A stretch of DNA of 64,000 nt. It comes from a virus. A program made the position numbers and the translations under genes. A model generated the notes under the pieces. It was not told the origin of the DNA and ran no database searches. It worked only from the letters and a program-made list of their open reading frames with translations. The stretch lies in the IMG/VR virus record IMGVR_UViG_3300045125_000101, positions 7,823 to 71,822 of that record; one strand, given 5' to 3'. Positions 5,004 through 23,776 of the stretch are shown piece by piece (position 1 is the first letter of the stretch; each line of letters starts with the position of its first letter).

Positions 5004-5081
5004 TTGTTTGCAATGGCGCGAGCTTTCACGCGCTATTATGGCACAGGGCCATCCTCTCCTTGTCTTTGAGTTCATTGCGAA
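5004..5081 (-). ncRNA. cloverleaf tRNA-like RNA with non-canonical loops
   Basis: Stems GCAATG/CATTGC, CTC/GAG, ATGGC/GCCAT and GCGCG/CGCGC in tRNA order and spacing. Confidence 0.55.
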
Positions 5082-5089
5082 AAAGAACT

Positions 5090-5145
5090 GTTGGTCAAGC
5101 GATGGCATTGAACCATCTTTAATAGACTATTCTATCTCAACCAAC
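5090..5145 (-). ncRNA. 56-nt mini tRNA-like RNA (closing stem, one hairpin, T-arm)
   Basis: GTTGGTTGAG/CTTGACCAAC, ATAGA/TCTAT, GATGG-TTCAATG-CCATC. Confidence 0.5.
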
Positions 5146-5186
5146 AAGAATGAGTATGACTTTTTTATCTAAAAGTCAAGAAAGTA

Positions 5187-5263
5187 TTTGCTCATCCGAT
5201 TCGAACGGATTTTTGTGCAATGCACTATGACCAATCGCCTTGGTACCTCAAGGTTTGAGCAAA
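5187..5263 (-). ncRNA. 77-nt tRNA-like RNA without a recognisable anticodon arm
   Basis: TTTGCTC/GAGCAAA acceptor stem, CCTTG/CAAGG hairpin, perfect T-arm ATCCG-TTCGAAT-CGGAT. Confidence 0.6.
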
Positions 5264-5267
5264 AAAT

Positions 5268-5347
5268 TGGAGCGATGTGAGCCGAACACGCGGCCCGCTT
5301 CTGACGGGAATGTCAGTATGCTTATCGTACATCTACATCAACACCGC
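5268..5347 (-). tRNA. atypical tRNA-Gly(TCC)-like
   Basis: GCGGTGT/ACATCGC, discriminator U, CCA; anticodon stem CTGAC/GTCAG with 6-nt loop ATTCCC; T-stem truncated. Confidence 0.55.
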
Positions 5348-5365
5348 ATAAAAAGAACAAAAATT

Positions 5366-5456
5366 GGTTCATCAAAGCGAGGGAGCCGATCCCTAATCAC
5401 GCTGACCTATGGTTAATTACTCCTTCGGTCACGAGTTCCGCACTAACTTTGATGAA
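5366..5456 (-). ncRNA. 91-nt RNA with a 10-bp terminal stem ending in CCA
   Basis: TTCATCAAAG/CTTTGATGAA+CCA; internal TGACC/GGTCA and AGGGA/TCCCT stems. Confidence 0.6.
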
Positions 5457-5494
5457 AAAGAGAATGACTATTTTTAATTAAAAGTCAAGAAAAT

Positions 5495-5826: not shown

Positions 5827-6371
5827 TCAATACTTTTTTGAGTTTTGTGAACCTTTTGTAGTTTCCACCTTTTGGAGATAGACCGCATTTAATCAGAGCT
5901 TGTCTAATTGTTGGCTCGGATTTAATCGCATCAATAGCAGCGGCATCGTCCACTTTATTGCACGATTTTTATTTCTTCCTCTCCAAGTAGGAGTAATACT
6001 ATGGCAGTTCGGGCAAAGAGCAACTAAATTCTGTCGTGAATTATCTTGATGATTTCCGTTGATATGGTCAATCTCAAAAGTCAATAAAGTTCCAAACCAT
6101 TCACTAACTCCACATTTACCACATTTATTTTTTGGTCAAATATTATTTTTTCTCTACGAGCATCACCACCTAATTTTTCAAATGGAGTTTCAGTTAAATA
6201 CTTGACTCTGTTTTCTTCTTTATTTTGGTATCGTCTCGCCGTTCCCTCTGCTTGTTTTCTTCGATATTCATTCCAAGCAGTTGGGTCACTTTTAAGATTT
6301 TCAAGCCACTTTCTGGCGGCTTCTCTTTGCTTTTGTTTTGTTTCTTCTGTTTGTGGTCTTCCTGTTTTCAT
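5827..6371 (-). mobile_element. free-standing HNH homing endonuclease inside the tRNA cluster (frameshifted)
   Basis: EIDHINGNHQDNSRQNLVALCPNCHS HNH motif; NUMOD3-like N-terminus (QTEETKQKQRE). Confidence 0.85.
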
Positions 6372-7546: not shown

Positions 7547-7625
7547 TGGCGCTCTTGGCGGGACTCGAACCCACATTAATCCAGTTATGCGCGTTCTGTT
7601 TAGAAGACAGAGCCAATACAAGAGC
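7547..7625 (-). tRNA. D-armless tRNA-Arg(TCT) with long variable region
   Basis: GCTCTTG/CAAGAGC+G+CCA; TCTGT-CTTCTAA-ACAGA; GTGGG-TTCGAGT-CCCGC; only 7 nt between acceptor and anticodon stems. Confidence 0.75.
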
Positions 7626-9378: not shown

Positions 9379-9452
9379 TGGGAGCAGGGAACCGAATTGA
9401 ACGATTGTCTCTTCATTATGAGCGAAGCGTGCTACCTTTACACCACCCTGCC
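9379..9452 (-). tRNA. tRNA with CAT anticodon (Met-like, atypical body)
   Basis: GGCAGGG/CCCTGCT, loop CTCATAA, TTCAATT T-loop, discriminator C, CCA. Confidence 0.85.
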
Positions 9453-9737
9453 GTAAAATTGTTTATTCCACTATCTATGATTTTCCATTCAACCACAGCC
9501 ATCGATTTTTGTCAAGCGGAATCTATTTTTTGTCGCTTGTTTTCTTACCCACCATTACTTTACCTGCTTCTGTTTTTATCTTTGTACCGTCGCTTGTATT
9601 ATTCTGGCGGCGCGAAAGTGCGCACCGATGGTTCATCAAAGGGTTGCTTTTCTATCCTATGTTATTTAAAGAACACTAACCACTATACCGATATATATTC
9701 AATAGTCAATAGAAAACTTCAAGATTTTTTACTTTTT

Positions 9738-21028: not shown

Positions 21029-22263
21029 TCAACTTATTATATCAAGGTTGTTATATTTCTTGAACAATACAGGTTCTGGACGGCAGTTCATCCATTTATC
21101 AAGCAGTGTGCTATATACTTGTCTAAAATCTGTGCTAAACTCAACATCTTGATTTTTTTGCAGTTTTAGGCTTGGTGCATTGCCATATATTCCACCTTTT
21201 ATGTTTGAACCTAATACAAATAATGGAGCAGCAGTGCCGTGGTCTGTACCAGCACTATCATTTTCATTTGGTCTGCGGCCAAACTCGCTAAAAGTCATTG
21301 TAGTTACTTGATTATCAAGTTTATGACCTTCTAAATCTTTTTGAAAAGCAAATAGTGCTTCTGATAGTTGTTGCAATAAGTTGCCGTGATTTAGCAACTG
21401 ATTGCTGTGTGTATCAAAGCCGCCAATAGATACAAAATATACTCGCGTTGGTAATCCTGCTTGTATAAGAGCAGCAACATTGCGTAATGAAGATGCCAGA
21501 TTGCTGTTGGGATATTTATAGTAAGGCTTATAGGCATCCAGTTTTTGTTGTACTTTGCGTTCTGTTACTAATGTGTTCATTAGCGTTTGCTTTAGAAAAG
21601 TACCATTATCATCGCCGTTCATTGCTTCAGAGTATGAACTTTCAAGCAACTTTCTTGTATCATCATTATCACGACGATTTATTCTATTTACAAAACCAAA
21701 AGTAGAATGCGGCTTTTTTCCGCCGAATGATTGCGGCGTGTTGCCTGTCATATGTATAGCAACAGGGTCGTGATTATCAGATGGCATACCAGAGCAGGCA
21801 TTATCAAGAAAACGTCCTATCCAGCCTGTAGATGATGTTCTATCACTATCCATTGCTGTTTCCCATATTTCTGTGGAACGAAAATGACTGCGATTTGGAT
21901 TTGGATAGCCAACATTTTGAACAATGCCAAGTTTGCCGCCAAGATATAAATCATTCATCTTGGTCATTGATGGATGCAGTCCGTGAGTGCTGTTTAGTGC
22001 TATAACATCTTTTTTCTTGATGGCAATCTTTGGACGAAGATTATAATAGTTGCTGTCTTCATATGGCACCAATGTATTCAAACCATCATTACCACCCGCC
22101 AGTTGAACAAGCACAAGTATGCTTTTGTCTTTTTCTGGCTTTGGCTGAGATGCCATTGCTGAACGCACCAAAAACTCTGGAGCAAACTGACCAAAGAAAG
22201 CAGACCAATGCCTGCGGACGACAACTTGATAAACTCTTTGCGTGTATGGGGTAGATTTTTCAT
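21029..22263 (-). CDS. DUF1501 family protein with Tat-like signal (frameshift near 22190)
   Basis: TRKEFIK leader; LVLVQLAGGNDGLNT, NPNRSHFRS, GGFDTH, FSEFGR, GTDHG motifs. Confidence 0.9.
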
Positions 22264-22267
22264 AGTA

Positions 22268-23776
22268 TTAGCATAGTTGATATTCGGGTGATTGCAGTAT
22301 GGTTACTACTGCACGCTTTAGCCTAAAGGTAGGTATATTGCGTTCTTTTTCAGGGTGGGGTACCTCAAAATGTTTTTATGTTATTTACAAGTTGCTGCGA
22401 CGGCTTTGGCAAAAATCTATTGCATAATACATTTGCCGCAGTAGTGCTGTCTAACTTGGATAGTTCAGATAATGAACTTTCATTGAAAGTAAATGATATA
22501 TTGCCAATCTGCGTTGGCATCATTGAGCAATCTCTTTTCATCTGCGTTCAATACTTTTTCATCCAACACTGCAAACAAGTTTTCCACGGTCTGGCGACGT
22601 GCTTGTATAGTACTTGAGTTTATCCAGTTCTTGCCGCCAACCCATCCACGCACATTAGGTGGATAAAATGGCATCTGTCCCATACTTCTCAATGGCTGAG
22701 TAACCAATCTTTGTAGTGGTGATACTTTGATGCCAGTATCCTGAACAACGCCGCAATAAAACTGAATAGGACTCTTGATATAGTTATGCTTATACTGTTT
22801 GCTATAAAACATATTGCTGCCAAAGAATATGCCAAGCAATGCTCGCAAACTATAGTTCTTGCTGCTCCATTCTTTGGCAATAGCATCAAGATATTCAACG
22901 CCAACTTCATTGTCGGTAAGATAAAACTTTATCATTTCTTGCGGCAAAAATCTGCCTGCTGCTGGCTGACGATATGCTATATCAATAACATCATCGCCGC
23001 TAAATCTACCAGATGTTTCAAATATGCTCTTTATTCCAGCGTCGTGCTGTGGAGCACTTAGATAAAATCTTTGGTTCTTTGCTCTATATCCTGTAAATGC
23101 TTTGGCCGACTCTTTGATGTCTTTTTCGTTATAGTTGCCTTCGCCAAGCACAAATAGTTCAAATAGTTCTCTGGCAAAGTTTTCATTCGGAGCACGCTTT
23201 TCGTTTCTGTTCAAATCAAGATATTGTATCATTGCTGGTGAGCGTGATATAAACTTGGTAAGATTTGGTGCTGTATTATATGCGTGCCTTGCCAGTATAT
23301 CAAAATGTTGATGAACAGTTACTGGGTCTCTTACTTTGTCTGCTCCAATAACATATACATCACTCAAAAACAAGTTCCATTTATAAAACGCACTATTTTC
23401 TATATACTGATGCGTCTTGTATCCAACGTATAGCAAGGTCATTTATGCCATTGCGTTGTTTGTTTTGCAGTTCTCTGCGTAGTTTATTACGTTCTTCAAC
23501 ATCAGCACCACGCATAGATGCTTGCAGTTTTCTTTCTTCTTCTTCAAACTTGGCTACTGACTCTGGTTTGTTTATGCCACGGCTTGGTGCATCAAGCGGA
23601 AATAACTTGTTTAGTGTTCCGCCCAATCCGTCACTTACTGCCTGCTTTACTTTATCTTCTGTAGCAGACCAGCCAGCTCTATTCAGTAGATGCCTTGCGT
23701 TTTCTGCGTTCCATTCAGAAACTGGCAACGGCTTCCACGCATCTTCTATCTTTAGCCCGTTGATAATATTACTCAT
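22268..23776 (-). CDS. DUF1800 family protein (frameshifted)
   Basis: ARHLLNRAG, PAMIQYLD, APNENFARELFELF.LG.GNY.E.DIKE.A.AFTG, PPNVRGW; ends SPEYQLC. Confidence 0.9.

Follow-up and report, generated by a model that had tools for sequence, protein, structure and literature searches.

RNAC and RNAD of bacteriophage T4 are located in the tRNA cluster of that phage. The small RNAs of T4 are of unknown function (PMC9697503). A precedent for a tRNA mimic devoid of CCA is YrlA (RF02553; 10.1101/312249): it is permuted, its ends form a Ro60-binding stem at the position of the anticodon stem, its acceptor stem is closed by a loop, and it adjoins the Rsr gene. Among larger RNAs, GOLLD and ROOL are found near phage tRNA islands, and OLE and GOLLD possess covarying loop palindromes which form symmetric kissing bridges; the intermolecular kissing pairs of both were seen by cryo-EM, and Kretsch et al. 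took the change of the OLE L9.3 loop palindrome from GGCC to GAUC or AGCU as evidence for such pairs (PMC12286853). Lastly, phage tRNA-rich regions are used to counter tRNA-targeting defences (PMC11555353, PMC11464382).

The locus described here, E1, is a structured non-coding gene in a phage tRNA region, and by context it belongs with phage small RNAs of the RNAC/RNAD kind, being like them small, structured, next to tRNA genes, accessory and without assigned function. What sets it apart from them is a distinct fold, one that includes a covarying palindromic loop, and its presence in uncultured freshwater phages. By analogy, E1 might in principle work most like a CCA-less mimic of the YrlA sort: both are tRNA-shaped, with D/T elements (the D element of E1 being putative), a long terminal stem and no free conserved CCA, but E1 has the normal D-then-T order and lacks a conserved Ro-binding strand, an Rfam match and, in five genomes, a TROVE gene. 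GOLLD, ROOL and OLE are large ornate RNAs with at least five contacts, whereas E1 is about 90 nt long, has one candidate bridge and has no Rfam match.

The E1 locus and its homologs

The window, i.e. the whole stretch of 64,000 nt that was analysed, belongs to a phage record of 138 kb that is 64% complete and has 25 tRNA genes. E1 extends from 5456 to 5365 on the minus strand, where all the elements given below with window coordinates also lie. It comes after tRNA-Lys, tRNA-Thr and tRNA-Glu and is the first of five structured modules (E1 to E5, 5456-5008), all missed by Rfam and separated by U-rich linkers of the same kind as those flanking the tRNAs. The original prediction was of a 91-nt RNA at 5366-5456; the element is real, but that end drops the final A, and the RNA with its CCA is 92 nt long. 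Contigs from run X2 span 5359-5488 with 2 differences, which shows that E1 is not an assembly artefact, and run X3 contains a variant with a different central arm; the runs with the E1 stretch are from lake and freshwater samples. The contigs of RNA run X19 covered tRNA-Thr only, not E1.

No close relative of the source phage was found among 50,697 GenBank phages, where the top blastn matches were the neighbouring tRNAs only. The window contains a DUF1800 + DUF1501 gene pair (21029-23442), the closest named cellular relatives of which are from Opitutaceae; for the DUF1800 protein, they are from Opitutaceae/Verrucomicrobia, at about 60% identity. This suggests, but does not prove, that the host of the E1-carrying phages is probably a member of the Opitutaceae. 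The source genome record bears several signs of frameshift errors, such as the length of the DUF1800 frame: 320 aa in the window, compared with about 502 aa in a relative that is 95% identical. Two other features of the region are an HNH endonuclease gene (5893-6371), apparently split, immediately upstream of tRNA-Lys, and a tRNA-Arg(UCU)-like gene (7550-7625) with a reduced D arm and a long variable region, scored at 36 bits by Rfam and missed by ARAGORN; relatives carry a normal tRNA-Arg(UCU) in that region.

The window copy of E1 by itself was weak evidence for an RNA. The fold of E1 alone had a z of -1.67, and 9 of 200 shuffled sequences folded equally well. Of inverted repeats with 10 perfect pairs and a distance of 50-100 nt between the arms, the window has 12 for 11.1 expected; for those followed by CCA, the expectation is 0.15. 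It is the homologs which establish that E1 is a real small-RNA family. The first one, L005, found through a nearby helicase gene, shares the whole 21-base core with the window copy, but differs in the terminal helix and lacks CCA. Scanning metagenomes with this core added 20 full-length loci, which makes 21 homologous loci, or 22 with the window, some of which are probably the same phage in different samples; together they present 12 distinct cores, including that of the window. The alignment used below contains 14 distinct rows with flanks, 53-98% identical, and most of the homologs in it were found by a pattern fixing part of the core. In every locus, the element is part of a tRNA/small-RNA cassette region of a related large phage, with neighbours that vary from locus to locus. 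Four parts of E1 (terminal helix, central arm, T-like arm and tail) are found in varying combinations among the loci. In G004, a complete 297-kb relative, only the 3' third is kept, fused to the start of another module, which indicates that E1 is dispensable, hence accessory.

Members of the family scored 93-117 bits with model R1, and the best non-member 22. The searches run revealed no distant or cellular member: the GTDB genome scan gave 5 matches (best 22 bits), all attributable to chance, so that there is no cellular homolog at the sensitivity of that scan. In viral contigs, relaxed core patterns had the L005 contig as sole real match, and model R1 was blank in 47 other loci. A pattern combining terminal helix and CCA was discarded, its 4 matches in viral contigs all being chance occurrences in coding DNA; a T-arm plus helix pattern gave no matches. 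As for known families, the comparison with Rfam, which the original prediction had called for, gave no match to E1 in the window or in the homologs, even at E ≤ 10. ARAGORN made no call on E1, and a 12-letter core word was absent from the literature searched. The family is thus apparently undescribed, with a possible overlap with candidates of PMC10690425, a large survey of viral structured RNAs which reports 10,006 of them.

The modules downstream of E1 are of several kinds. E3 (5187-5263) has a 7-bp acceptor-like stem and a perfect T-arm, without CCA or anticodon arm; nhmmer found no homologs in the fetched loci, run X2 contigs contain it with 4 differences, and there is a weak match in G003. 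E4 (5089-5146), an RNA of about 58 nt conserved in at least 7 loci, combines a terminal stem of 11 bp with one hairpin and a canonical T-arm; its stem strands, UGGUUGAG and CUUGACCA, resemble the Ro60-binding helix of Y RNA, but without the bulged C. E5 (5008-5081) is a conserved multi-hairpin RNA with a covarying terminal stem and a UGAAAGCU loop; related loci, G004 among them, contain at least 14 copies of it, and it has no Rfam match. Another RNA of about 215 nt with a 13-bp terminal helix is encoded at 19444-19660 of L005, and also in L067, L090 and L097. By eye, it contains words like those of the conserved regions of RNase P RNA, AAAAGUCGC near the 5' end and CAGAAUUCCGCUA near the 3' end; it had no Rfam match at E ≤ 5 and could be a minimal phage RNase P-like RNA.

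Fold of E1 and its covariation

The perfect 10-bp helix of the original prediction is present: UUCAUCAAAG (5456-5447) forms 10 Watson-Crick pairs with CUUUGAUGAA (5377-5368), extended by a junction U·G. Across the family, the conserved part of this terminal helix, P1 (5' strand 5446-5456, 3' strand 5368-5378), consists of 8 bp (5454-5447) plus the invariant U5446·G5378, and its 3' strand is preceded by an unpaired invariant C (5379). Columns 5-12 are paired in 14 of 14 rows, with two-sided changes for 6 of the 8 pairs; column 4 is unpaired in three rows and column 3 in one. The two outer U-A pairs of the window copy are not a family trait, and neither is the predicted length of 10 bp, as only 8 pairs hold in all 14 rows.

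P1 leads into a junction strand, UUAGUGCGGAACUCG (5432-5446), invariant in 14 of 14 rows. This invariance is partly built in by the search pattern; the strand was already identical in L005, found without it. It may form a 3-bp D-like hairpin, AGU-GCGGA-ACU (5444-5434), with GG at 5439-5438; being invariant, this hairpin gives no covariation signal and is unproven. In the position of the anticodon arm is a central arm, P2 (5400-5433), made of a lower helix, a variable internal loop and a 2-bp inner helix. Pair 30-57 is AU, GC or GU, pair 39-49 is UA, AU or GC, and pair 38-50 is GC or AU. The predicted UGACC/GGUCA stem is there (5431-5427/5407-5403), but the large loop it was thought to enclose, 19 nt in the window, holds the covarying inner helix and a 9-nt apical loop. 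Next comes a variable-loop-like linker of 5 nt, UGAUY (5395-5399), conserved in 14 of 14 rows with U or C as last base. The 5-nt variable loop of class I tRNAs likewise has a pyrimidine as its last base, next to the T stem.

The AGGGA/UCCCU hairpin noticed in the T-arm position (5394-5380) is also present, either as a 4-bp stem with the 7-nt loop AUCGGCU or as 5 bp with a 5-nt loop. Two-sided changes affect three of the four pairs, and the loops are AUCGGCU, GUCGGCU and UUCAAAA, the closing bases of which (A-U, G-U, U-A) could make a fifth Watson-Crick pair. In L059 the whole arm is replaced by AAUC-UUCAAAA-GAUU, with a textbook T-loop, which also occurs in the G004 remnant; the T-loop letters U-C-R-R are retained in all rows, including that with the swap, which supports the T-arm assignment of the original prediction. 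The neighbouring module E2 has UUCGGCU/AUCGGCU too, but these cannot serve as proof that AUCGGCU is a T-loop since in E2 the letters sit in a covarying stem (GGGCCG/CGGCUC, GGGUCG/CGACUC, GGGCAG/CUGCUC).

Over the four helices, 98.6% of the cells are paired and 14 of 20 pairs show a two-sided change; none of 500 shuffles scored as high, and slid controls were paired at 30-50%. The homolog covariation proposed as a check thus points to a conserved, discrete and tRNA-shaped RNA. The two-sided changes amount to a handful of events, because there are just 12 distinct cores, closely related and mosaic. Constrained folding gave a cloverleaf composed of P1, one U, the D-like hairpin, a long arm, the 5-nt linker, the 4-bp arm and the bulged C, whereas minimum-energy folds of single sequences often preferred other inner structures. 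The RNAalifold consensus, in which a 5' hairpin is formed and the apical hexamer pairs intramolecularly with UGAUYA, was rejected as main fold: apart from P1 and the T-like stem, none of the inner pairs shows a two-sided change, and the cloverleaf is the more stable of the two in 12 of 14 rows. We conclude that the covariation supports a distorted cloverleaf, with the D-like hairpin as a possible element.

A pairing that extends P2 into the junction fits the alignment equally well. This is the basis for another reading, in which E1 would be a three-way-junction RNA, closed by C-G/G-C pairs with P2 continued through the core; its invariant core would bind a phage or host protein, or a metabolite, and the likeness to tRNA would be incidental. 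The invariant strands can indeed pair (G21-Y67, A22-U66, C24-G64), with a G-U/G-C change at 67, and the fold is preferred when position 67 is C (L059, L067, L071); the D-like loop, moreover, has just 5 nt and lacks the usual A14. We nevertheless hold this reading to be quite unlikely, given that U-C-R-R persists in the swapped hairpin, itself a textbook T-loop, that the variable loop has 5 nt and that the elements come in cloverleaf order. Visual likenesses to 5S rRNA loop C, the sarcin-ricin loop and SRP helix 8, as well as to SAM-I P1, box C/D and CsrA sites, were dropped as they had no Rfam support and the required pairings or bases were not conserved.

The fold differs from that of each tRNA class it was compared with. 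Canonical tRNAs (RF00005) have a 7/5 branch and a 5-bp/7-nt anticodon arm; E1 has 8-9 bp and 4 bp with a bulged C, and a central arm about 11 pairs long. For the elbow, it has the invariant GG and the conserved U-C-R-R loop, but the D-like stem never varies. With allo-tRNAs, SelC* tRNA-Cys and polycistronic irregular tRNAs (PMC5389517), it shares a longer acceptor, a 4-bp T stem and an irregular tRNA-like run. The comparison with allo-tRNA and SelC* models, also part of the original prediction, failed on the branch, V-arm, D stem and discriminator. The allo-tRNA branch is of 12 bp (8/4 or 9/3), whereas that of E1 is 9/4 with a bulge when U·G is counted, i.e. 13 pairs (up to 15 in the window copy), and is 8/4 solely with two unpaired bases between the stems. 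In place of a long V-arm, a long D stem with tetraloop and G73/U73, E1 has a 5-nt variable loop, a 3-bp stem with a 5-nt loop and A, G or U after the stem; it also lacks a standard anticodon arm and a conserved CCA. tRNA-Sec and SelC* tRNA-Cys have a UCA or GCA anticodon, a long V-arm and a fixed discriminator (U73 for SelC*), whereas the loop centre of E1 is GAU or AAU and there is no V-arm. No match to the Rfam tRNA clan was obtained at E ≤ 10.

Neither the Ro60-binding 5' strand nor the permuted topology of YrlA/Y RNA is found in E1, whose terminal stem varies freely in sequence, and RF02553 matched none of its copies. A TROVE gene (PF05731, Rsr/Ro60) is absent from the phage genomes G000-G004, one of which is complete, a host Rsr being possible; a bS21 gene is absent as well. 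The tRNA-like domain of tmRNA resembles E1 in having a long interrupted helix in place of the anticodon arm, but E1 has no G3·U70 acceptor pair, conserved CCA or tag reading frame, and ARAGORN at default settings found no tmRNA.

Transcript ends and the encoded CCA

Directly upstream of E1 is a phage-type promoter motif, TTGACT-16 nt-CATTCT (5461-5488), which scores below the threshold of a generic sigma-70 scan, recurs in front of many genes and tRNAs of the phage, and is presumed active. Its -10 box ends 13 nt before the E1 core, with the same spacing in 6 loci. From usual promoter spacing, the probable 5' end is at about 5454/5453, which coincides with the conserved boundary of the terminal helix and suggests that the first two U's of the window helix are not transcribed; the 3' end given here is nominal. 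In L043, L047, L059, L065, L067 and L071, a further small module is located 60-75 bases upstream of E1, often between promoter and E1; its closing pairs are GUUC/GAAC and its inner hairpin is variable. It is absent in the window.

The position of E1, first or second module after the promoter in nearly all loci, could be that of a mere processing or stability element, either punctuation recruiting RNase P or a shield for the 5' end of the cassette transcript, or else of a functionless decayed tRNA. Its loss from G004 and a 13-pair branch near the size of an RNase P substrate would agree with this. We find it very improbable: the modules that follow E1 differ from one locus to the next and possess closing stems of their own, punctuation has no need of a long invariant core or a palindromic loop, and the compensatory changes exclude simple decay.

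The original prediction took the encoded CCA as a sign that the RNA is meant to look chargeable. The CCA is present directly after the helix (5367-5365), but only in the window and in L043, i.e. in 2 of 22 loci; in the true tRNAs of the E1-carrying phages, counted loosely as CCA within the last 10 bases, the figure is 75 of 77. L056 and L105 have the same core as L043 and a different tail. The identity elements read by synthetases include the outer acceptor pairs and the discriminator base. In E1 both vary freely, the outer P1 pairs being C-G, A-U or G-U and the base that follows the stem A, G or U. A start at 5454 would give AACCA as overhang, which puts the CCA one base out of register with the conserved stem.

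That E1 is a chargeable mimic or an unusual 9/4-type tRNA, its CCA encoded here and added elsewhere by a host enzyme, might still be argued from the CCA of the two loci, from the location among tRNAs, from a conserved 9 + 4 = 13-pair acceptor/T branch like that of eukaryal and archaeal tRNA-Sec, and from the irregular tRNAs of Mukai et al. (PMC5389517), charged yet not used in translation. The freely drifting acceptor end, the tails differing between identical cores, the register of the CCA relative to stem and predicted start, the bulged C between T and acceptor stems and the missing 5-bp/7-nt anticodon arm leave this reading with very little credence. Nothing in the E1 sequence appears to be selected for charging, and the encoded CCA on a 10-bp acceptor looks like a peculiarity of the window copy. 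E1 is thus a case where a CCA beside a stem was no evidence of charging until homologs were checked.

The 13-mer which ends E1 recurs at 9641-9629, for 0.01 expected per genome, and copying from there could explain the CC of E1 without selection for CCA. Co-evolution of the two was rejected since the motif at 9641-9629 is fixed while the E1 stem changes. That motif is part of E9 (9450-9720), an RNA of about 230 nt, promoter-driven and upstream of tRNA-Met, present in 8 related loci and without Rfam match; one of its stems, CCUACG/CGUAGG, is CCAUCG/CGAUGG in the window.

E2 (5268-5347), often directly downstream of E1, is tRNA-like too, with a covarying 7-bp acceptor stem, a U discriminator and a CCA in nearly all its homologs. 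Its arm in the T position is of 6 bp and 6 nt, and its central arm differs widely in length, with a long insertion in L013 and L059. On its sequence, E2 is a better candidate than E1 for a chargeable mimic.

The apical loop and the proposed function

The apical loop of P2 (5413-5421) contains a palindromic hexamer, UAAUUA (5419-5414) in the window. A palindrome is found in 14 of 14 rows (UGAUCA in 11, UAAUUA in 3), in a region free of search-pattern constraint, and the two forms are related by one double substitution that keeps self-complementarity. Predicted self-pairing is very weak for UAAUUA (-0.4 kcal/mol), compared with -5.0 for UGAUCA and -7.9 for GUGCAC; for a mixed pair of the two natural hexamers, the prediction is +1.0 kcal/mol. 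Retroviral dimer-initiation loops have a 2+6+1 layout, as does the 9-nt loop of the window. The palindrome may be a signal for kissing-loop dimers. The commonest apical loop, CUGAUCA in 6 of 14 rows, is also one base from CUGAUAA, the anticodon loop of the phage's own tRNA-Ile(GAU); mimicry of an anticodon loop would be a second reading, compatible with the first.

If dimerisation were the main function, E1 would be a self-associating RNA in which a symmetric kissing-loop bridge makes a homodimer, acting as a two-headed scaffold or ligand; pairing between the loop of one copy and the UGAUYA segment of a second would lead to a higher assembly. The unconstrained conservation of the palindrome and the loop layout are consistent with this, as is the pairing of hexamer and UGAUYA by RNAalifold, which has zero mismatches in any row; the double substitution is of the sort seen for the OLE L9.3 switch (PMC12286853). 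We rate this reading, which is compatible with that of a decoy, as unlikely though not negligible, in view of a single substitution event, of the weak UAAUUA pairing and of two other readings of the same letters, namely mimicry of an Ile-type anticodon loop (U33, RAU, A38) and an intramolecular closing pair.

The best explanation overall, and one we hold tentatively, is that E1 is an uncharged, tRNA-shaped accessory phage RNA acting as decoy or ligand; function as a decoy, taken on its own, is somewhat more doubtful. E1 would be transcribed from its own phage-type promoter, or cut from a longer cassette transcript at the U-rich linkers. It would fold into about 9 terminal pairs, the bulged C, the 4-bp T-like arm and an over-long arm replacing the anticodon arm, with a probable elbow contact between the D-loop GG and the T-loop. 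It would be neither aminoacylated nor used in decoding, and the invariant junction core would bind a host tRNA-handling protein, e.g. a tRNA-cutting or tRNA-modifying defence enzyme.

Several observations favour the decoy reading. The homologs are confined to tRNA/small-RNA cassette regions, and the helices covary; stems free in sequence around a fixed junction are what is expected for a shape with a binding core. The U-C-R-R signature survives the swap to a canonical UUCAAAA loop, the variable loop ends as in class I tRNAs, and in 6 of 14 rows the apical loop is one base from the anticodon loop of the phage tRNA-Ile(GAU). CCA, discriminator and first pairs are all unconserved, and G004 has just a 3' remnant of E1. 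Against it, the invariant D-like hairpin has an equally fitting rival in P2 extended into the junction, single-sequence folds often favour other inner structures, and the 12 cores are closely related, mosaic and mostly found by a core-fixing pattern. In addition, the phage countermeasure of PMC11555353 and PMC11464382 is a working tRNA, not a decoy. A combination of the two functions, in which uncharged E1 dimerises through the loop at the anticodon position and, as a two-headed tRNA mimic, traps or blocks a host tRNA-targeting defence enzyme, seems improbable to us; if true, it would be an anti-defence factor made of RNA only, for which the literature searched describes no counterpart.

Many of the small RNAs in phage tRNA regions are overlooked by annotation tools, and even those of T4, known for a long time, lack an assigned function. 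At about 90 nt, the E1 family is a compact test case, because its natural variants already include exchanged terminal stems, an exchanged T-arm, either of two loop palindromes, and tails with or without CCA; with them, elbow mimicry, charging and dimerisation can be tested directly. Should E1 prove to act as a decoy towards tRNA-targeting defences, the means of phage counter-defence would comprise non-coding mimics in addition to replacement tRNAs.
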